DNA from: Escherichia phage vB_EcoD-Elw
Length of the DNA stretch: 64,000 bases
Sequence record: OR621298
Direction: 5' to 3' (one strand)
Part shown: one piece after another, positions 7,484 through 27,467 of the stretch
Layout of the letters: each line of letters opens with the position of its first letter
How positions within the stretch are numbered: position 1 is the first letter of the stretch
Program-made: the position numbers and the translations under genes
The notes under the pieces: generated by a model
Databases searched by the model: none
Seen by the model: the letters and a program-made list of their open reading frames with translations, nothing else
Told to the model about the DNA's origin: nothing

Positions 7484-8431
7484 TTACTTATTACGCATAT
7501 CCATAATCATTTGGCCATCATAGCCAGTGCCAACCACAGTCTGCGGTACACCACCTTGGTATTTCTGAGCACGAATCATTTCAACTTCCAGTTGCTTCCA
7601 GCGAATCATCTCAGGAGTAATGGTACGTTGCAACGCGGCGTTAGCTTCAGCTTCTTTCTTAGCTGCGTACAGTTTGGCATCTGCGTCACGCTCATTGGCA
7701 ATAGCTTGGTTATTACGAGCTTCGCGATCTGCTTCTGCTTGTTTAACCTTCTGCTGTGCTTCTTGTTCAACACGAGCCAGTTCAGCTTTCGCAGCATTAA
7801 CTTGCTCTTCACGAACTTTGGTATTCTGTACCTGTTCCATGATTACCGGTGGCAAAGTAATATCCTGAAGGAATACCTGCTTAACTGTATAACCATATGG
7901 GCGTGCATACTCTTCAACTTCCTGTTGAATTGCAGTTTGCAATTGAGCCTGAATTTTAGCATCAAACAAATCTTGTGCTTTAGGTACAGACTTACCAAAC
8001 TCACGAATAGTAGACAGTAATTTTTCAGTTACATATTTGTCTAGCGCTTGATCCTGAGTACCTGCGTTAATACGGTTAATCGGTGCCTTAGAACCATCAA
8101 ACTGCAACATAACAGTCAGGTCAACAGTGGATTTAAACTTATCCTGACTAGGAACCTGAAGTTTATCTAATTTTAGAGCAATATCTTTAGTACTAAAAGT
8201 ATCGAAAGAAGCAAAAGGATTTACAATATGAAAGCCGGGTAGTACTGGGCTAGGGTCAACTTTACCCAGGAAAGTCTGGGTTTTAACAGTACCGTCTTGA
8301 ACAACGGTATAAGAGTTAAAGGCTAGAATCAAGCCTGCTAAACCAACTATAGCACCAATACCCCAACGTTTAATAGTACGAATTACTTTCTGCTCAGAAG
8401 TCAGTTCTTTCATATTTTTAGTATTAAACAT
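7484..8431 (-). CDS. SPFH/band-7 (stomatin/prohibitin/HflC-like) membrane protein
   Basis: 315 aa; N-terminal hydrophobic helix (WGIGAIVGLAGLILAF), central SPFH-like region, C-terminal Ala/Glu/Lys/Gln coiled coil; ATG 8431 with AAGGAAA RBS. Confidence 0.8.
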   Translation of the reverse strand: MFNTKNMKELTSEQKVIRTIKRWGIGAIVGLAGLILAFNSYTVVQDGTVKTQTFLGKVDPSPVLPGFHIVNPFASFDTFSTKDIALKLDKLQVPSQDKFKSTVDLTVMLQFDGSKAPINRINAGTQDQALDKYVTEKLLSTIREFGKSVPKAQDLFDAKIQAQLQTAIQQEVEEYARPYGYTVKQVFLQDITLPPVIMEQVQNTKVREEQVNAAKAELARVEQEAQQKVKQAEADREARNNQAIANERDADAKLYAAKKEAEANAALQRTITPEMIRWKQLEVEMIRAQKYQGGVPQTVVGTGYDGQMIMDMRNK

Positions 8432-8465
8432 ATATTTCCTTTGTTTTAGTTACAGTTAATAAAAT

Positions 8466-8540
8466 TGGCCGAGGTGACAGGATTCGAACCTGCATAAAGG
8501 AATTTAGAAGACTCCTGCCTCTCCATTAGACTACACCCCG
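8466..8540 (-). tRNA. tRNA-Arg (anticodon TCT)
   Basis: Acceptor CGGGGTG/CACCTCG, anticodon arm GGAGT-CTTCTAA-ATTCC, T-arm GCAGG-TTCGAAT-CCTGT, CCA. Confidence 0.75.
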
Positions 8541-9042
8541 TTTAAGTATTTTTAAGAACTCTCGTAAAAACTCTTAAAAATACAGACGATACCGGGAGAG
8601 TCATAAGTCTCACTCATTAAGTATTTCAAGACAAAATACAGTAACGTCTATTATTTTCCAGTTTAAGTCAAGGTGACTTAGTGGTTATGTCCTGCGGTAT
8701 ACTGAGGACTCGGTTAGGATTGGGGTCATGACTTCCCGCCTTTTGCTGCTACTCAACAGGAGTTATCGCGAATTACCTGTGCTATTGTGCACCATTAGTG
8801 ACATCTCTCATGTCAGCATTTCCCACTTTGTGGATAGCTTGAAAAACTACTCCGATATGGAGAAAGAACTTCACTATCCTAGAATACCTTCTAAAGTTCT
8901 TCTTTAGCCTGGACATAGTTAAATCGTAATAAAACTATTCAGCAGACTAGTTGGTTAGTCTGGAACCAACTACCGCGTGGTTTAGGCAGTGCGCAACTAA
9001 CCTCGGAAGCTTTTACGTTAAAAGCATCAGTTATCCAGTTCT

Positions 9043-9114
9043 TACCGACCGTAGGATTCGAACCTACATCTTCCACCAGTTACGGCTTGATAATACCAAT
9101 TATACTAGGACGGC
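9043..9114 (-). pseudogene. degenerate tRNA-like element (no CCA, no anticodon stem)
   Basis: Canonical T-arm GTAGG-TTCGAAT-CCTAC and 6-bp acceptor GCCGTCC/GGTCGGT, but no convincing anticodon arm and no encoded CCA. Confidence 0.35.
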
Positions 9115-9337
9115 AGTGTTACTACATAAGTGATTTCCACACCCCACTATTTATAAATTAGGGAAGAGTTTAGGGGAGAGGTTTCAGACGCCTCATTTTA
9201 TACGTTCTAGCCACTAACCGGGATTGCCGCCCCCTGTGTACTAGTTTTACAACTAACCCACCGACTCTATTCAATGCGCTCCGGTTGGGATTCTGCACTC
9301 AGCGTAATCGGCTCGCTGTTCCCTAATTTATGAATAT

Positions 9338-9366
9338 ATTATACAGAATTTATAAGCATTTAGCAA
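9338..9366 (-). promoter_or_regulatory. sigma70-type early promoter (TTGCTA-17-TATAAT)
   Basis: Minus-strand consensus; would transcribe the 8541-9337 leader, tRNA-Arg and the SPFH gene. Confidence 0.6.
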
Positions 9367-9374
9367 ATGAATTT

Positions 9375-9809
9375 TTAGAAAAATTCACTAGCGATCAAAG
9401 CAGTTGTTTTACCGTCATAACGTCCAGGAAATTCTGCCTTAATAGTTTTCATTAATAGAGCTTTGGTAATACCTGGATTTAATTTAACCAGTTCTGCAAA
9501 ATACTCACGAATCTGAACTTCAGTTAACTGCTCCAGAGCATATTCATGCTCTAGACCTGCTAACAAGTCGAGATATTCAGCATCTGGAGTATATTCGATA
9601 TTTGCTTTTGCAGCAGAAGTCATTGTATTCTCAATTGCTTTGAACTGTGATTTAACCCAGTTAGTAAACTCTAGTCTAGATACGCAATCTTTATCAATTC
9701 GTTGTAAGTCGCCTAAAATCGTACTAAGGTGCTTGACTGACACAGTATCACCGTGTTTGCGAGCTTTTTCAATTAATTCTCGCAGCACACGAATCATATT
9801 CGTACCCAT
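9375..9809 (-). CDS. hypothetical protein (144 aa)
   Basis: ATG at 9809 overlapping the stop of the upstream small ORF (TAATG). Confidence 0.55.
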   Translation of the reverse strand: MGTNMIRVLRELIEKARKHGDTVSVKHLSTILGDLQRIDKDCVSRLEFTNWVKSQFKAIENTMTSAAKANIEYTPDAEYLDLLAGLEHEYALEQLTEVQIREYFAELVKLNPGITKALLMKTIKAEFPGRYDGKTTALIASEFF

Positions 9810-9979
9810 TATTTCATCCCCAATGCTTGGTTAAAAGATTGTTCTGTCATAACTGCTGAGACTTTGGCGAAATCAAACTTTTTAGGGTTCGTAGTGATTT
9901 CAGCAACGTTAGAAGTTTTAACAGTTTTCGTAGTACGAATACCACGAGTGTTAACACCAATAATTACAACTGATTTCAT
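9809..9979 (-). CDS. small hypothetical protein (56 aa)
   Basis: ATG at 9979 with GAGGAAG RBS; translationally coupled to the 144-aa gene. Confidence 0.45.
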   Translation of the reverse strand: MKSVVIIGVNTRGIRTTKTVKTSNVAEITTNPKKFDFAKVSAVMTEQSFNQALGMK

Positions 9980-10010
9980 ATTTCGCTTCCTCTCATTAAT
10001 TTATGAAAGT

Positions 10011-10039
10011 ATTATACAGAAATTTAAGTAGTTAAGCAA
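10011..10039 (-). promoter_or_regulatory. sigma70-type early promoter (TTGCTT-17-TATAAT)
   Basis: Minus-strand consensus motif. Confidence 0.6.
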
Positions 10040-10047
10040 GTAAATTT

Positions 10048-10497
10048 TTAAGTTTTAGTGACAACAGGTTTATAAAACGTATGTCCCTTAATCTTAGTTG
10101 TTTTCTTAAACTTCTTTGTCCAGTAAGGTTTATCTTTACCACTATGGAAGTATAGTGCTCCATGTGTAGGATCTTGTGGTAAATCAACGTAGTATATCAC
10201 TCTAGCTAAATTCTTAGCGGTTTGCCAAGCCTCATCAGTTTTATCAACTTTTGGTCTCTTAGATACCCAAGAGAACTGGTTAGACTGATATACTACTTTA
10301 CAGTAGGAATCTGGGAATTTACCGGAGTTTACACGGTTTTTAGTAACATATGCAATCGCCGTCATTCCCTTTATGCCCTCACCACGACTTTCGAAATAGA
10401 TATTTTTAGCAATGCAATCTATTTCTTTTGCATCGTGCGATGCCTGACTACTAAAGCTGAAGGTAAGGGCAGCTACTAAAAGCAAAGCTGCCTTCAT
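10048..10497 (-). CDS. secreted cell-wall hydrolase (SleB/Hydrolase_2-like)
   Basis: Start placed at ATG 10497 (AGGAG RBS); N-terminal signal peptide MKAALLLVAALTFSFSSQA; cell-wall hydrolase-like core. Confidence 0.7.
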   Translation of the reverse strand: MKAALLLVAALTFSFSSQASHDAKEIDCIAKNIYFESRGEGIKGMTAIAYVTKNRVNSGKFPDSYCKVVYQSNQFSWVSKRPKVDKTDEAWQTAKNLARVIYYVDLPQDPTHGALYFHSGKDKPYWTKKFKKTTKIKGHTFYKPVVTKT

Positions 10498-10502
10498 TCT
10501 TT

Positions 10503-10820
10503 TTACTCCTGCCAATCATATTCAACACGATTGGGATTTTCTTTATACCCTAAGTCAAGCAAATCATTACGCATATTTTGCTTAGCTACTGGGTTCGAGG
10601 TTACTAGTACCACTTTCTTTGGTCTCTGTCCAAATTCTAAGAGTAAACGAAGAATTTGATAACCTTCCATACCATCTACAGCCAAGTCATTATCCATATA
10701 AACGAAATGGCCTGTGGTATCAGTTTTATTCAGAAACTCTACAGCGGCTTCTGGGGTTCGAATGATAATGTCCATTCCGTGAAGATTGCGCACATCATCA
10801 ATCAAAATATGAAAAGTCAT
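10503..10820 (-). CDS. stand-alone receiver (CheY-like REC) domain protein
   Basis: 105 aa; REC-like pattern with acidic pair (HILIDDV), central Asp (YMDNDLAVDG), Thr (VVLVTSNP) and Lys; ATG at 10820; stop lies 6 nt upstream of the hydrolase ATG at 10497. Confidence 0.55.
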   Translation of the reverse strand: MTFHILIDDVRNLHGMDIIIRTPEAAVEFLNKTDTTGHFVYMDNDLAVDGMEGYQILRLLLEFGQRPKKVVLVTSNPVAKQNMRNDLLDLGYKENPNRVEYDWQE

Positions 10821-10850
10821 AATAGCCTCGTTTCATCAATTTAAAAATAT

Positions 10851-10879
10851 ATTATACACATAATTTAGTAAATTAGCAA
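10851..10879 (-). promoter_or_regulatory. sigma70-type early promoter (TTGCTA-17-TATAAT)
   Basis: Minus-strand consensus motif. Confidence 0.6.
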
Positions 10880-11262
10880 ATACATTTTTAAATTGTGAAA
10901 CTAGTAAACCGATAAACAGCCTAGAGGCGCCACAGGCCATATCTTATGAGCCATGTACCTTTGATCTAGGGTTTGAATCATCAACGAATACTTTGCATCT
11001 TTTAGCTTTAGAAGTTTAGAAGTTTGAGTTCTTTAAACTTTTCAGCTTTCATACTTAAATGTTGATCTTTGAAGTTGTGTCGGTAATATCAACGACGCTT
11101 TGTTTTTACGTGTCAGATTAAATGTCTGATGTAATAAACATAATCTCCAATAGATTATACTTTATAGTATGGTCAGCGGTCTTATTTAACCTCGTATTTC
11201 AACCGCTGCTGCGAGGTAAGATGCTTGGGCTTTCGTCTACCGATTTACTAGCTTTTAAATTA

Positions 11263-11901
11263 TTACTCTACTTCAATGAAGGTAGAGGCGTTAGACTCGG
11301 ACAGAACAAAGTCAACATTTGTTGCAAAGTCCTGATATTCCTCGTCATGCTGCTTAATCAGCTTCTCCAGTTCCAGCGGATCAATCAAGAATGGAGTATT
11401 CTTGAGTTCCAGCAGGTTGAGCTGCATTTTAACCTCATCTTCGGAAGTTTTCTTATCGCGGGTAGCCATGCTATCCTGCAAACGCTCATATTTAGTATCA
11501 AACTGTGCTTTCTGCGTATTAAACTTAACCGTAGCGGCGTGGAACTGCTTACGCATGTTAGCCAGCAGTTGAGCTTTAAGTTCCATAGAACGCTTAGCTT
11601 CAATTGCTTCCGCAACAGTCATCTTACGAGAACCAATCTCAACTACTGTTTCCGCATTGCTCTTAATCAGAGCAGCTTTGATACGATCACGCTGGGACAT
11701 CATATCCAGGAGAGATTGGAAATCTGCCTTAATACGAGCAGATAGATCGTCTACTTCGATTGCAGCGCCAACTACAACCTTATTTTTATCCTTACCTTCA
11801 CCAACAGCGATCAGAAGCTGTTGTTCAGTAGCTTTACGGATTTTAGCTTCCAGAGATTTGATAGTTGCCAGAGCGCGAGTTTTAGAGATACGAGTAGTCA
11901 T
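11263..11901 (-). CDS. hypothetical protein (212 aa)
   Basis: ATG at 11901 with AAGGAAG RBS; no recognisable motif. Confidence 0.6.
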   Translation of the reverse strand: MTTRISKTRALATIKSLEAKIRKATEQQLLIAVGEGKDKNKVVVGAAIEVDDLSARIKADFQSLLDMMSQRDRIKAALIKSNAETVVEIGSRKMTVAEAIEAKRSMELKAQLLANMRKQFHAATVKFNTQKAQFDTKYERLQDSMATRDKKTSEDEVKMQLNLLELKNTPFLIDPLELEKLIKQHDEEYQDFATNVDFVLSESNASTFIEVE

Positions 11902-12207: not shown

Positions 12208-12909
12208 TCAAATTTTCATTTTTTCGATCATAGCTGCAACACAATAGCTCTCAACTAAGGCATCAAATGCTGGGTCGTGCTTAACCGGATAGATCCCATA
12301 ACGAATGGTGTCCATCTTCTCCATTTTAGCTTTTGCCCAGCTAATACCTTCAGCTTCTAGATCTTTGTAACTATAACCAGCTTGCATCCAGAGATTACGA
12401 AGAGATCGAACATTGCCCAAATTCCAGAATTTCCACGGAACTACCTCTTCATTGGTTCCAGCATGGAACGTGTTTGCCGAGTAGATAGTCATATCAAACT
12501 CTGGGCCATTGCCGTAATACAAAGCATTTTCGCCTAGAGCCAACTCCATAATATTTTGAGCCATAGAGAAGGCAGCATAGTTAGAGCCAAGTTTATTAGT
12601 GCAATGATGTTTACCATTTTGGAAGGCAATCAGCTTTGGATTACGCCCGTTCATAGCTTCCATAATGTGGATAGCAGACGGGCTATTTTTAGCTTGATCC
12701 ATCCAGAATGCTAGAGTAGATGCTGTAACTTTGGCACCAGAATTAAGTTGATCTTGTACATCCAAAGTAACAAATACTAGATCAGGGTCTTTATCAATTC
12801 CATGCATAGCCACAAAAGCGAATGAAGGCATCGCGATATGAGTAGTACCACAATCTCCTGGAGTTCCTAGAGATTCAATATCTAGCATACCAAATGGTTT
12901 TACTTTCAT
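12208..12909 (-). CDS. DEDD-family 3'-5' exonuclease (DnaQ/DexA-like)
   Basis: 233 aa; FGMLDIESLGT (Exo I D-x-E) and HDPAFDAL (Exo III H-x4-D) motifs. Confidence 0.7.
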   Translation of the reverse strand: MKVKPFGMLDIESLGTPGDCGTTHIAMPSFAFVAMHGIDKDPDLVFVTLDVQDQLNSGAKVTASTLAFWMDQAKNSPSAIHIMEAMNGRNPKLIAFQNGKHHCTNKLGSNYAAFSMAQNIMELALGENALYYGNGPEFDMTIYSANTFHAGTNEEVVPWKFWNLGNVRSLRNLWMQAGYSYKDLEAEGISWAKAKMEKMDTIRYGIYPVKHDPAFDALVESYCVAAMIEKMKI

Positions 12910-24961: not shown

Positions 24962-25151
24962 GGGTTTAAACTCCGCTTTGGAAAACGCATTAATGCAGCA
25001 CTGGGAAACTGGCTATAAGGATGGTGTTGAATCCTGCGCTACTATGCTAGAAGTTATTGCTAATACCTTAATGGAGAAAGGCAATAAAGAATTAGCTGAG
25101 CTATTAGACAGTATTGGGCAAAACTTCAGAGAACAGGTGAAAAATGCGTAG
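24930..25151 (+). CDS. hypothetical protein (73 aa)
   Basis: ATG 24930 with GAGGAGAAA RBS. Confidence 0.5.
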   Translation: MAFSKPMLPDKGLNSALENALMQHWETGYKDGVESCATMLEVIANTLMEKGNKELAELLDSIGQNFREQVKNA

Positions 25152-25968
25152 ATTAATTATTATTAGCGGTGCAGGTTTGAGTGTTGAAAGTGGTGTACGA
25201 GCTTTTCGTACTGATACTGCTAGTGGTAAAGCACTGTGGGATGATTATGATCTAGAAGAAGTATGTAATATTCATGCCTTTCGTGGTAATTTTTATCATA
25301 AAACCCATATGTTTTACAACAAGCGTCGTGAAGAGCTAAAAACTGTTGAACCTAACCTTGCGCATCTTCGTATTGGTGAGTGGTATAAACAATACCCAGG
25401 TCAAGTAGTAAACTTGACTACCAATGTTGATGACCTTATTGAACGTGCTGGCGTTCCACATAGTGACATTCTGCACATTCACGGATATTTAAAAGAGGTT
25501 GTTGTAGCTGACAGCTACAATAGTAGTAATAAACGAATTATTGATGTTGGGTATAACTCTATTGACCCAGATGATTATAAATGGGTTAAACCTAATGTAA
25601 TCTTCTTTGGTGAGCATGCTCCAGCATATACAGAAATGTACAATGTTTTTGATGGTATTACCAGTCAAGATATGATCATTGTGGTTGGTTGCTCTAACCA
25701 AGTAATTAACTTCTACTGGGAATTATTTCCTGTTCTTAATTTGACTGCTGCCAAATTAATGGTAGTTAACTACTATGATAGTGCCCTAGCGACAGAGCCG
25801 GGCTACCAAGGTATGACTCGTAGTGAGATGTACCAGCTGGAAGAACGCGGTATCCCTTACTGGAGTAAAGGGGCTGTAGATGCCTTCAGTGACCCTGATT
25901 TTATTGCTCGTGTAGAAGCTCATCTAGAGGGTAGACCTTATATGCCGGGGAAACAAATATGTCCATAA
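25144..25968 (+). CDS. Sir2-family (sirtuin-like) NAD-dependent protein without the Zn-ribbon
   Basis: 274 aa; GAGLSVESGVRAFR, TTNVDDLIERAG, IHGYL and PNVIFFGE match sirtuin Rossmann motifs; no CxxC...CxxC zinc module. Confidence 0.7.
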   Translation: MRRLIIISGAGLSVESGVRAFRTDTASGKALWDDYDLEEVCNIHAFRGNFYHKTHMFYNKRREELKTVEPNLAHLRIGEWYKQYPGQVVNLTTNVDDLIERAGVPHSDILHIHGYLKEVVVADSYNSSNKRIIDVGYNSIDPDDYKWVKPNVIFFGEHAPAYTEMYNVFDGITSQDMIIVVGCSNQVINFYWELFPVLNLTAAKLMVVNYYDSALATEPGYQGMTRSEMYQLEERGIPYWSKGAVDAFSDPDFIARVEAHLEGRPYMPGKQICP

Positions 25969-26141
25969 TTAAATCTGTGTATACACACCCTGATGATATA
26001 TTTGTATGGGCGGACGGTAGTTGGTGTTATCGCTGTGAGTTGTGGGAAATGGACTATAAATCCGATGACTATGGTGTTATATATGTGGATACGGTTGAGT
26101 ATGATACGTTCTTAGAAAGGAACAAAAATGGAAATAAGTAA
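25959..26141 (+). CDS. hypothetical protein (60 aa)
   Basis: ORF overlapping neighbours by a few codons; weak RBS. Confidence 0.4.
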   Translation: MSIIKSVYTHPDDIFVWADGSWCYRCELWEMDYKSDDYGVIYVDTVEYDTFLERNKNGNK

Positions 26142-26634
26142 TACTCCAATTATTTTTCTAGACATTGATGGGGTGCTCAATTCGAGCATCTCCCACCATC
26201 ATGCACCTGATGATGAAAAGATTTTCTTTGGAAGTGACTGGGTTTTCAAACCACTTCTCAAGGCTTTTCAGGACTTTATTCGTCCTTCTCCGATAATGAT
26301 TGTTGGAGTATCCTCATGGTTCTCTGTCAGGAATGAGATGGAGAACGTTCAGATTATGACCGGATTAGGTCTTATCGATCGTTTTCTTGGTACAACGGAT
26401 TTTACCGGGGGTGGATTATCTAGGGGTAATTCTGTTCTTCGCTTCGTTGAAAAGCATAAGCTCAAACATTGGTGTGTGCTGGATGATGCCGGTGCTATGA
26501 TGTATCAGTATCCAACGGTTATAGTCAATGGTAGAACAGGAATAAATCTTCAGGATTTAAAAGCTGTTAGCTATATGCTAGAATTTAGCCCAGATCTTGA
26601 AATGTGTAAATCCTTACAACAATTTAAGGTGTAA
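26128..26634 (+). CDS. HAD-superfamily phosphatase-like protein
   Basis: 168 aa; N-terminal motif I IIFLDIDGVLN (DxDGV); GAAAGGAAC RBS. Confidence 0.6.
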   Translation: MEISNTPIIFLDIDGVLNSSISHHHAPDDEKIFFGSDWVFKPLLKAFQDFIRPSPIMIVGVSSWFSVRNEMENVQIMTGLGLIDRFLGTTDFTGGGLSRGNSVLRFVEKHKLKHWCVLDDAGAMMYQYPTVIVNGRTGINLQDLKAVSYMLEFSPDLEMCKSLQQFKV

Positions 26635-26636
26635 AT

Positions 26637-27065
26637 ATGTTCAATAATGTATTCTCTAAAGAAGCTAACCCAATTTTGGTTAACTTTTGGCGTACTCTCC
26701 CGGCTAGCCTGTATAATGAGGCTATTAACTCCTTGAAAATATGGTGTGAGAATAACGAAATCTCCTTTGCTTTTAAAGATGATATTGATGAGGCCCCCTG
26801 TATTGGTCTAGTTGTGCAGGTAGAGGAGGGTCTTGAAGAGATTGTGGGCTGGAAAGAGTTAGACGAAATGGGCTTAGTTTTTGCGTTAAATTATAAGCTG
26901 TTTATGCCTGCTAAGCATCGCCTAGTTGTTAACTATAAAACTAGTGAATCTCCTGGTTTTCAGGTTAATGAACGTTATGGTTGGTCTTACTCACCGGAAG
27001 AAGTAAATGATGGTATCCAAAAACTTCGTCGTTTTGGTTATCAAATTCCGGGTTTAACCGCCTAA
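26637..27065 (+). CDS. hypothetical protein, paralogue A of a tandem pair
   Basis: Shares blocks with the next gene (EAPCIGLVVQ vs DDPCIGVFLS; MGLVFALNYKLF vs MGLIVALNFSIF; YQIPGL vs YVPGL). Confidence 0.6.
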   Translation: MFNNVFSKEANPILVNFWRTLPASLYNEAINSLKIWCENNEISFAFKDDIDEAPCIGLVVQVEEGLEEIVGWKELDEMGLVFALNYKLFMPAKHRLVVNYKTSESPGFQVNERYGWSYSPEEVNDGIQKLRRFGYQIPGLTA

Positions 27066-27074
27066 GGGGGCATA

Positions 27075-27467
27075 ATGGAACAAGTATATTGGCGTCAGAT
27101 TGATCCTAGTTTGGTGAAGCGTGCGGAGAAGCTGCTACAACGTTGGTTGGTGGTAAGACAAGTCTCCTTCACTTTTCCGGAGCAGCAAACGGATGATCCA
27201 TGCATTGGCGTTTTCCTGTCTGGATATGCCGGGGAATGGGAATTGGATTGGAATGAATTGTCTGCTATGGGCTTGATTGTTGCCCTAAACTTCTCTATAT
27301 TCCATCCACGTGGTTTGGCCATATGTCGTGTGCCTGATGACGGTTGTTCGCCCCATCTTTTACAGGTGGAAGATGATATTTGGGAGTACACTCCAGATAT
27401 TCTCGCAGAAGCTAAAGAACAATTAAATCGTGTTGGGATTTATGTTCCGGGCTTAAATGATGGATGA
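27075..27467 (+). CDS. hypothetical protein, paralogue B of a tandem pair
   Basis: Paralogue of 26637-27065; AAGGGGG RBS. Confidence 0.6.
   Translation: MEQVYWRQIDPSLVKRAEKLLQRWLVVRQVSFTFPEQQTDDPCIGVFLSGYAGEWELDWNELSAMGLIVALNFSIFHPRGLAICRVPDDGCSPHLLQVEDDIWEYTPDILAEAKEQLNRVGIYVPGLNDG

Follow-up and report, generated by a model that had tools for sequence, protein, structure and literature searches.

The window, by which we mean the whole 64,000-nt stretch of DNA that was analysed, derives from a T5-like phage (Tequintavirus). Positions 10,048–10,820 contain two genes on the minus strand, the first encoding a 105-aa protein of the cREC family and the second a 149-aa SleB-like hydrolase (Table 1). 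Over 2 kb at this pair, the DNA identity is 98.8% to Salmonella phage SCF and 92.8% to T5. The layout agrees in position and strand with the original prediction of a 105-aa ORF immediately upstream of a SleB-like ORF, and corrects the gap of 6 nt given there: the TAA stop codon of the cREC gene (10505–10503) and the ATG of the hydrolase gene (10497–10495) are separated by a spacer of 5 nt, AAAGA. The GGAG Shine-Dalgarno sequence of the hydrolase gene is located inside the final two cREC codons, 8 nt 5' of the ATG, and this start codon coincides with that of T5.083 in a comparison with T5. A GAGG Shine-Dalgarno sequence is found 6 nt ahead of the cREC ATG at 10820.

The two-gene unit is preceded by an early promoter/leader cassette with a −35 element TTGCTA (10879–10874) and a −10 element TATAAT (10856–10851) at a spacing of 17 nt, a 10/12 match in the promoter scan. 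This cassette is the counterpart of the promoter annotated upstream of T5.084. A second copy, 74% identical to the first over a 70-nt direct repeat, overlaps the final codons of the hydrolase gene, starts the next unit (homologues of T5.082/T5.081) and marks the downstream edge of the cREC–SleB unit. The two copies thus bracket exactly the cREC and SleB-like genes. A sequence scan revealed no terminator-like site between the two genes or after them, and an Rfam scan of positions 8300–11400 returned tRNA matches alone, with no regulatory RNA near the pair. The single promoter-like site ahead of the genes and the uninterrupted junction between them bear out the view that the pair is under one promoter.

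Table 1. Features of the cREC/SleB-like locus and of candidate partner genes in the same genome.
Feature	Coordinates	Strand	Basis or remark
cREC gene	10820-10503	minus	105 aa + stop; orthologue of T5.084
SleB-like (Hydrolase_2) gene	10497-10048	minus	149 aa + stop; orthologue of T5.083
Predicted Sec signal peptide MKAALLLVAALTFSFSSQA, codons 1-19	10441-10497	minus	hydropathy and inspection
GGAG Shine-Dalgarno sequence of the hydrolase gene	10509-10506	minus	direct sequence reading
Early promoter/leader cassette, copy 1, driving the two-gene unit	10825-10894	minus	promoter scan and repeat
Promoter/leader cassette, copy 2	9985-10054	minus	direct repeat; T5 promoter P-D/E 33
SIR2	25144-25968	plus	Pfam, 6.9e-25
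Swiss-army-knife HAD phosphatase	26128-26634	plus	Pfam HAD_SAK_2, 4e-20

A comparison with T5 shows that the pair corresponds to T5.084 (hypothetical protein, YP_006912) and T5.083 (YP_006911 / AAX12015), the latter annotated as 'endolysin' or 'sleb spore cortex-lytic enzyme precursor'. Gene order and strand are common to both phages, as are the gene sizes (318 and 450 nt), the 5-nt spacer and the flanking early promoters. The locus is an allele of T5.084/T5.083, and nothing of substance differs between the two.

The 105-aa protein belongs to the cREC family, PF20274, with a score of 56.8 bits over a cut-off of 27 (E = 3.8e-15, residues 4–87 of 105); none of the NCBIfam models matches it. The family, whose name stands for cyclic-phosphate processing Receiver, was defined by Iyer, Anantharaman, Krishnan, Burroughs and Aravind in 2021 (PMC7824862) and 2022 (PMC9503650). 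These authors never found it associated with histidine kinases, predicted that it is a cyclic-phosphate phosphoesterase, and described the domain as experimentally uncharacterised (PMC7824862, PMC9503650). A literature search found no biochemical work on any cREC protein after the defining papers.

The AF2 model of the protein (pLDDT 90.6) adopts a receiver-like Rossmannoid α/β-fold with five strands (residues 4–7, 18–20, 39–42, 69–72 and 100–102) and three helices (residues 23–32, 53–62 and 77–90). Helices α1 and α5 are absent, and the model departs from the (βα)5 topology of PF00072. In comparison with CheY-like receivers, α1 is replaced by a loop bearing the conserved R11 and D17, an Asp is invariant at the D+2 position, and both an output domain and a kinase are lacking. 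A fold search returned response-regulator receivers as the only structural neighbours. The receiver-like character proposed originally holds for the fold and does not extend to the profile: the protein scores 12.5 bits against Response_reg (PF00072), below the threshold of 30.2, and its hhalign probability against CheY is 12%. Matches of the cREC profile to PDB sequences were at chance level (E > 0.2), and a relationship to resolvases was rejected on this ground.

Six residues are invariant in an alignment of 81 diverse cREC members, namely D8, D9, R21, D43, D45 and G53, and all are present in the query; R11, D17, P67, T/S74, N76 and Y92 are nearly invariant. In the alignment with CheY, D8–D9 correspond to D12–D13, D43 to D57 and T74 to T87, and D45 occupies the D+2 position. 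The CheY-like residue pattern that had been proposed is thus present in its acidic pair, central Asp and Thr, and absent in its Lys: the counterpart of K109 is N95, at a position that is variable across the family, and the PF00072 quintet is incomplete. The T5-type protein differs from many other family members at three sites. Ala occupies the nearly invariant Gly position 47, Asn44 is found where most members have His, and a Trp follows the last strand where many members have Arg or Lys.

In HAD enzymes, the nucleophile is an Asp that is followed by another Asp at the +2 position. The D43-x-D45 arrangement of cREC resembles this Asp-x-Asp, whereas the folds and motifs of the two families are unrelated. 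HAD phosphatases and 2H phosphoesterases (Acb1, LigT-like) would be functional analogues of cREC with no kinship to it. These are enzymes of small size encoded by phages, which act on RNA ends and nucleotide signals by opening or removing their cyclic or terminal phosphates. The comparison of cREC with them extends only to the presumed chemistry.

The retained phospho-acceptor geometry and the receiver character of all structural neighbours are features that would suit a true phospho-acceptor, a decoy or phosphate sink that drains host phosphorelays or acetyl phosphate independently of the SleB-like protein. In bacteria, some single-domain receivers serve as phosphate sinks. We consider this role very improbable for the phage protein, which has neither the phosphoryl-stabilising Lys nor α1, a helix that normally contributes to the surface for kinase docking. 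The invariant D45 and Arg residues suggest catalytic turnover over a stable phospho-state, and the genomic contexts elsewhere comprise RNA ligase, PNK, SIR2, Nudix and Acb1, with no signalling genes.

The cREC family is widespread. At the 50% identity level, an exhaustive representative search yielded 428 representatives, most of which are stand-alone proteins of approximately 100 aa; a single-query, word-indexed protein search reached T5-like relatives only. At least 845 cREC matches were found in cultured-phage records by two tblastn searches, whose lists may overlap. These numbers contradict the notion that such single-domain proteins are unusual in phages. The T5-type cREC is present in 493 phage records, and SleB homologues in 1371. 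One apparent HNH_3–cREC fusion (P0033) was rejected as a domain architecture, as it is probably a read-through of a homing-endonuclease insertion. Locus searches with the sub-family alignments A3–A6 gave four loci each for A4 and A6 and none for A5.

In the Vequintavirus bov25_3, the gene order is Rnl1-type RNA ligase, cREC, SIR2, with cREC directly upstream of SIR2, and a divergent PNK-like kinase and a calcineurin-like phosphoesterase are located at the locus beside a tRNA cluster. An RNA ligase lies 2.4 kb upstream of cREC in another locus (L018), RtcB-like neighbours occur at three loci, and the cREC gene of phage PSTCR5 resides inside a tRNA cluster. These contexts, together with the cREC gene near an Acb1 homologue at L019, agree with the published cREC prediction (PMC7824862, PMC9503650). 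In most metagenomic cREC neighbourhoods, the flanking ORFs are small and unannotated, and no partner recurs. No histidine kinase was found in 11 Pfam-annotated neighbourhoods of cREC homologues, and no kinase annotation is present in the T5 regions that match the window from approximately 5.3 kb to 64 kb.

In the genome under study, genes for SIR2 and a HAD_SAK_2 protein are found about 15 kb from the cREC gene and not adjacent to it (Table 1). The combination of SIR2 and HAD is the 'SP15-type' neighbourhood of PMC9503650, and the two proteins may share with cREC a pathway for the processing of RNA ends or ADP-ribose phosphates, a link that we infer. An Rv2179c-like exoribonuclease is encoded 1.4 kb upstream of the pair, a tRNA cluster is nearby, and the genome encodes at least 13 tRNAs. 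Like the published cREC proteins, the T5-type protein is phage-borne and has no histidine kinase partner. Clear RNA-repair operons with cREC were seen in other phages only; the T5-like gene is not operonic with RNA ligase, Nudix, SIR2 or HAD, and its cassette-mate is a cell-wall hydrolase.

The host-name counts of the cREC and HAD_SAK_2 tblastn searches are nearly identical. Co-variation of the two was rejected as proof of a common pathway, given that both could be specific to Markadamsvirinae and that PSTCR5 has a cREC without HAD_SAK. This phage lacks SIR2 as well, which indicates that the partnership with SIR2 and HAD is not obligatory.

As an alternative to RNA ends, the main substrate of a cREC phosphoesterase could be a small molecule, either a signal of host immunity or a product derived from NAD (cADPR-type, cyclic oligonucleotides or 2',3'-cNMP). 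With such a substrate, cREC would be an anti-defence enzyme analogous to Acb1 or Apyc1. At the L019 locus, 72 nt separate an Acb1 homologue from the cREC gene downstream of it, Nudix–cREC fusions and NAD/ADPr contexts have been reported (PMC7824862, PMC9503650), and a cREC match in phi1_175008 carries the annotation 'nudix hydrolase'; in addition, the T5-like cREC is kept without an adjacent RNA ligase. The most explicit conserved neighbourhoods in cultured phages, on the other hand, are those of RNA repair (Rnl1, PNK-like kinase, phosphoesterase, tRNA clusters), including the tRNA cluster that surrounds the PSTCR5 gene, and the Acb1 context was seen only once. We regard this class of substrates as rather unlikely.

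The downstream gene product matches Pfam Hydrolase_2 (PF07486) over model positions 1–100 of 100 (E = 6.8e-25; score 88.1 bits, cut-off 27) and is assigned to PHROG 938. Comparison with the SleB catalytic domains in the PDB (4F55 and 4FET; E = 2.5e-8) aligns the YxESRGE motif, with Y34-F-E36-S-R-G-E40 (YFESRGE) of the phage protein on YGESRGE of SleB. Orthologues in the Demerecviridae T5, Ace, Sugarland, My1 and KKP_3711 and in contig L020 retain the ESRGE motif. The SleB equivalog model TIGR02869 gives 49.9 bits, far below its cut-off of 236.5, and matches at model positions 79–201 only, which implies that the catalytic domain alone is common to the phage hydrolase and SleB proper. This domain aligns end to end with that of SleB/CwlJ and the catalytic Glu is kept. 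The phage protein differs from SleB proper in the absence of the N-terminal peptidoglycan-binding domain, in the presence of a predicted signal peptide and in its origin from a phage of a Gram-negative host. SleB acts at spore germination, whereas the phage hydrolase is expressed early in infection.

The prediction of the signal peptide is based on visual inspection and on hydropathy, which reaches a maximum of 2.41 over 12 residues at the N-terminus. The putative cleavage site, read from the sequence, follows MKAALLLVAALTFSFSSQA and precedes SH; it is of the S-Q-A|S type, with no lipobox Cys. A comparable N-terminus is found in the orthologues of T5, Ace, Sugarland, KKP_3711 and the L020 contig, while those of My1 (1.90) and PSTCR5 (1.77 from the first Met) are weaker by the same 12-residue measure. 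The proposal of a signal-peptide-bearing, SleB-like hydrolase is thus upheld at the level of sequence prediction. We found no published functional study of T5.083 or T5.084, and no experimental report of muralytic activity or export for a T5.083-type protein.

The label 'endolysin' attached to PHROG 938 and to many GenBank records raises the question of whether the protein is a second endolysin that acts late with the lysis cassette, in which case its early, secreted character would have no special meaning. SleB-type domains work as lysins in other phages, and two 'endolysin' ORFs have been described in T5-like Salmonella phages (PMC11180984). The gene nonetheless belongs to the early region, where it follows an annotated early promoter at a long distance from the holin/endolysin pair, and the product has its own predicted signal peptide, with which it would have no need of a holin. 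We regard a late lytic role as unlikely.

The same gene pair is present in hundreds of T5-like genomes, and in 24 of the 25 T5-like IMG/VR loci it is tight. The two genes are split by an HNH gene in Ace, by an 85-aa ORF in KKP_3711 and by approximately 460 nt in a further locus (L165). The distance between them increases to 2.9 kb in My1 and 9.3 kb in PSTCR5, in Sugarland no cREC is found within 4.5 kb of the SleB gene, and in bov25_3 the two are 64 kb apart. Among 77 non-T5 cREC lineages, a SleB gene flanks cREC in one, against 0.34 expected by chance. One contig from an unrelated phage (L034) has a Hydrolase_2 gene directly adjoining cREC, in the reverse order with respect to T5. In phages outside Markadamsvirinae that encode both proteins, cREC is part of an RNA-repair operon. 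The cREC–SleB pairing is limited to one lineage and constitutes inherited synteny within Markadamsvirinae; the shared promoter reflects common descent and not the regulation of one gene by the other.

The original prediction had taken the pairing as a hint of regulated or host-signal-responsive murein remodelling, in which a receiver-like phospho-switch would sense a host or phage signal and control the activity, export or timing of the SleB-like protein. The single promoter cassette, the 5-nt spacing and its retention in nearly all T5-like IMG/VR loci are compatible with this scheme, as are the receiver-like fold with its DD, D and T residues and the adjacency of the same two families in L034. 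However, the protein falls short of Response_reg and lacks an output domain, the conserved Lys and α1, no partner kinase occurs in any neighbourhood examined, and the defining authors report none with the family. The hydrolase has a predicted export signal and cREC has none, so that direct regulation would need to precede export. The two genes are no longer neighbours in My1, PSTCR5, Sugarland and the Vequintavirus, homing-endonuclease genes or extra ORFs intervene in several T5-like phages, and SleB is not enriched near non-T5 cREC. Outside Markadamsvirinae, the genes drift apart or occur alone. The inference of coupling is unsupported, and we judge signal-responsive control to be highly improbable. 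Taken as a whole, the earlier interpretation is partly supported.

The L034 contig leaves room for a weak functional link, with adjacency of the two families having arisen at least twice, in T5 and, reversed, in L034. In such a case, cREC might work in the cytoplasm, as a phospho-switch or as an enzyme, to gate how the murein hydrolase is produced or exported, or it might damp a host envelope-stress phosphorelay provoked by the hydrolase. The two adjacencies are the only positive support for a real link of this kind, which is extremely improbable.

The explanation that best fits the established structure of the genes, their family membership and fold, the conserved residues and the phyletic and neighbourhood patterns is that the T5.084/T5.083 pair shares one early promoter cassette and that the two products probably do unrelated jobs. 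The stand-alone cREC would represent a reduced receiver fold in which the residues of phosphoryl chemistry, D8/D9, D43 and T74, are retained. To these it adds the family-invariant D45 at D+2 and the conserved R11 and R21, and it has no receiver Lys, α1 or kinase partner. It is most likely a small cytoplasmic phosphoesterase with a predicted activity on cyclic phosphates, candidate substrates being RNA or tRNA ends with a 2',3'-cyclic phosphate or an ADP-ribose cyclic phosphate. The protein may belong to a phage RNA-repair and NAD/ADPr toolkit together with SIR2, the Swiss-army-knife HAD, the Rv2179c-like exoribonuclease and the tRNAs. The 149-aa protein is a putative Sec-exported, single-domain peptidoglycan hydrolase of the SleB/CwlJ type that is made early, its activity and export being deduced from domain and signal peptide. 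It would act as an auxiliary murein-cleaving enzyme in the periplasm, separate from the T5 lysis cassette.

Both genes are conserved and already annotated in T5-like phages and belong to catalogued families; the locus is, in this respect, ordinary and already known. Two labels are corrected by the analysis. The 'receiver' is a cREC domain and no two-component element, and 'endolysin' is a doubtful name for an early SleB-type hydrolase that bears a signal peptide and is predicted to be exported. Promoter sharing in the early region of T5 provides no ground for inferring functional coupling. T5 is a genetically tractable model with a minimal stand-alone cREC, and is thus convenient for a first enzymatic test of the family.

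Both open reading frames of the original prediction are present on the minus strand, and both are preceded by one promoter-like site, a sigma-70-like TTGCTA-17-TATAAT at 10879-10851. The sequence places 5 nt between the cREC stop codon and the hydrolase ATG, and the GGAG ribosome-binding site of the hydrolase gene lies within the last codons of the cREC gene. A scan found no terminator-like site at the pair. A 70-nt promoter/leader cassette occurs in two minus-strand copies (10825-10894 and 9985-10054; 74% identity), which delimit exactly cREC and the hydrolase as one promoter unit. Its repetition reflects a modular, one-promoter-per-cassette build of the T5 early region.

Over the 2 kb around the pair, identity is 98.8% with Salmonella phage SCF and 92.8% with phage T5, and 445 phage records contain matches. 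The genes are orthologues of T5.084 ('hypothetical protein') and T5.083 ('endolysin' or 'sleb'), and are embedded in the T5 early-region layout (tRNA cluster, RNase H, thymidylate synthase, ribonucleotide reductase), with the annotated early promoters of T5 at positions equivalent to those in the window, which encodes 13 tRNAs. What the window carries here is an allele of a pair known from hundreds of sequenced T5-like phages. The finding is ordinary; both families are on record in the databases, and close homologues already bear cREC names in UniProt and GenBank.

Coordinates of the gene pair, neighbouring features and homologous loci
Feature	Coordinates	Strand	Location	Remarks
cREC ORF, 105 aa	10820-10503	(-)	window	
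Hydrolase ORF, 149 aa from ATG	10497-10048	(-)	window	
tRNA-like element	9043-9114	(-)	window	Rfam tRNA 35.5 bits (gathering score 29); no ARAGORN call
T5.081 homologue, 'tRNA amidotransferase' label (PHROG 1460)	9375-9809	(-)	window	no Pfam or NCBIfam match
T5.085 homologue, 'tail fiber protein' label (PHROG 1491)	11263-11901	(-)	window, early region	without Pfam support
Rv2179c-like 3'-5' exoribonuclease domain protein, T5.087 homologue	12208-12909	(-)	window	1.4 kb upstream of cREC
SIR2	25144-25968	(+)	window	
Swiss-army-knife HAD phosphatase (RNA-repair)	26128-26634	(+)	window	3' of SIR2
Two tandem DUF7415 paralogues	26637-27065 and 27075-27467	(+)	window	after HAD phosphatase
Divergent cREC gene	L173 34545-34919 = record 84545-84919		Providencia phage PSTCR5 (Priunavirus)	Pfam 52.8 bits
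Compact RNA-repair cluster	L175 3698-6823 = record 96.7-99.8 kb		Escherichia phage vb_EcoM_bov25_3	by tRNA cluster
Hydrolase_2-cREC adjacency	L034 5578-6320		IMGVR_UViG_3300038652_000127	also L070, L069, L040

Elsewhere in the window, region 25144-27467 corresponds to the neighbourhood that Iyer et al. 2022 (PMC9503650) termed 'SP15-type' and predicted to serve NAD-dependent RNA repair. Homologues of T5.087 are variously labelled 'exonuclease' or 'metallopeptidase', and the tRNA-like element is located where T5 records place a stable 'RNAX' or a pseudo-tRNA. The PHROG-type labels of the T5.085 and T5.081 homologues look doubtful.

Both folds had been recognized correctly. The 105-aa protein matches Pfam cREC_REC (PF20274) with 56.8 bits (cut-off 27), and Response_reg with 12.5 bits, below the cut-off of 30.2; its PHROG match (PHROG 1479) carries no function label. 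The structure model displays a reduced receiver fold of five strands and only three helices, with a loop in place of helix alpha1 and alpha5 absent. An exhaustive profile search yielded 428 representatives of the family at 50% identity, almost all of which are stand-alone and about 100 aa long. Alignments of 150 and of 81 members show that D8, D9, R21, D43, D45 and G53 are invariant and that R11, D17, G47, P67, T/S74, N76, L87 and Y92 are nearly so. In a profile alignment to E. coli CheY, D8-D9 correspond to CheY D12-D13, D43 to the phospho-acceptor D57, D45 to the D+2 position, G53 to G65, T74 to T87, G91-Y92 to G105-Y106 and N95 to K109. Four of the five residues of the proposed CheY-like pattern (acidic pair, central Asp, Thr, Lys) are present; the Lys is absent, no conserved Lys being found at the K109 position, which varies across the family alignment. 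A true phospho-acceptor working as a decoy would agree with the placement of D43, and is very improbable. No histidine kinase family occurs in any Pfam-annotated cREC neighbourhood.

Iyer et al. 2021 (PMC7824862), who defined cREC as a divergent receiver domain, likewise never found it with histidine kinases, linked it to RNA ligases and NAD/ADP-ribose-processing genes, and predicted it to be an enzyme that opens 2',3'-cyclic phosphates or derivatives of cyclic ADP-ribose. In 2022, Iyer et al. (PMC9503650) repeated the prediction, called cREC experimentally uncharacterised, and described two neighbourhoods: the V5-type, with sirtuin, T4-like RNA ligase, cREC and kinase, and, in T5-like phages, the SP15-type, with sirtuin and Swiss-army-knife HAD; our literature search found no later work on cREC. 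Most likely, cREC would be a cytoplasmic phosphoesterase acting on cyclic phosphates within the tRNA/RNA-repair or NAD-ADPr toolkit of the phage. From conservation and known receiver and HAD chemistry, we infer that D43 may be the nucleophile or a phosphate ligand, that D45 may assist it and that R11/R21 may bind phosphate.

The 149-aa protein matches Pfam Hydrolase_2 end to end (E=6.8e-25). At E=2.5e-8 it also matches two SleB catalytic domains of solved structure, 4F55 and 4FET, its YFESRGE falling on their YGESRGE. It scores far under the cut-off of the spore-SleB equivalog model because the N-terminal peptidoglycan-binding domain is absent. Its N-terminus, MKAALLLVAALTFSFSSQA|SH, looks like a Sec signal peptide; comparable N-termini are found in the orthologues of T5, Ace, Sugarland, KKP_3711 and contig L020, and a weaker hydrophobic peak (maximum 12-residue hydropathy) in those of My1 (1.90) and PSTCR5 (1.77). 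Early export to the periplasm is the most likely fate of the enzyme, which would cleave peptidoglycan there as an auxiliary lysin, in local wall remodelling or in some other capacity. A plain second endolysin, as the name given to T5.083 implies, is rather unlikely; the literature on T5-like phages mentions only that they have a 'SleB' ORF well away from the holin/endolysin pair.

The two genes are tightly linked in 24 of the 25 IMG/VR loci of Markadamsvirinae and in metagenomic relatives at 70% identity. Insertions are tolerated at the junction: an HNH homing endonuclease in Ace and in bobsandoy (H15/H16), an 85-aa ORF in KKP_3711 and about 460 nt in the homologous locus L165. HNH genes also occur upstream of cREC, read as an HNH_3-cREC fusion ORF (P0033, 273 aa; L007 3823-4347), and the cREC locus is an insertion hot spot for homing-endonuclease genes. 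In Demerecviridae outside Markadamsvirinae the link dissolves. The genes are separated by 2.9 kb and five genes in My1; PSTCR5 carries a divergent cREC within its tRNA cluster, 9.3 kb from SleB, and no homologue of SIR2 or HAD_SAK could be detected in it; in Sugarland, SleB occupies the syntenic site and cREC is absent within 4.5 kb.

SleB homologues are present in 1371 phage records and the T5-type cREC in 493. In the Vequintavirus bov25_3, which has both families, the SleB homologue is at 34 kb and cREC at 98.7 kb, where a calcineurin-like phosphoesterase and a PNK-like kinase (divergent) are followed by an Rnl1-type RNA ligase, cREC and SIR2, adjoining a tRNA cluster; most of these genes are annotated as 'hypothetical' in the record. 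A tblastn search with the PSTCR5-type cREC matched 352 further phage records, many of which carry an 'RNA ligase' or 'nudix hydrolase' annotation on or next to the matched stretch. The 139 cREC loci gathered from uncultured phages form 82 clusters at 80% identity, 77 of them non-T5. One of these 77 has a Hydrolase_2 gene in its flanks, against 0.34 expected in 567 kb of flanks, given how densely SleB homologues are spread over phage genomes in general (P=0.29). This 28-kb contig of an unrelated phage (L034) represents a second, independent adjacency in reversed order that is not statistically compelling: its Hydrolase_2 protein, without signal peptide, is 32% identical to the T5 protein, and cREC follows after 8 nt and has its reading frame shifted at a (TG)5 run, a position where the assembly from a second sample breaks.

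Recurrent neighbours of cREC are sparse (RtcB-like ligase and calcineurin-like phosphoesterase, three loci each); one contig (L018) has an RNA ligase nearby. On contig L019 (5438-6300), which also carries Ter-family genes, cREC lies 72 nt downstream of a homologue of Acb1, an anti-CBASS 2H phosphodiesterase, which hints that some members may counter nucleotide signals. An anti-defence enzyme that degrades signals would share its chemistry with an RNA-end enzyme and differ only in substrate; we consider it unlikely for the T5 protein.

Nothing supports the proposed signal-responsive murein remodelling, and the comparisons between phages speak against it. Functional coupling of the two genes, which their close linkage might suggest, is very improbable. 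Most likely, cREC and the hydrolase owe their common early promoter cassette to descent and work in separate compartments. The sole residual interest of the locus is that the family could first be tested biochemically on the minimal cREC of T5.
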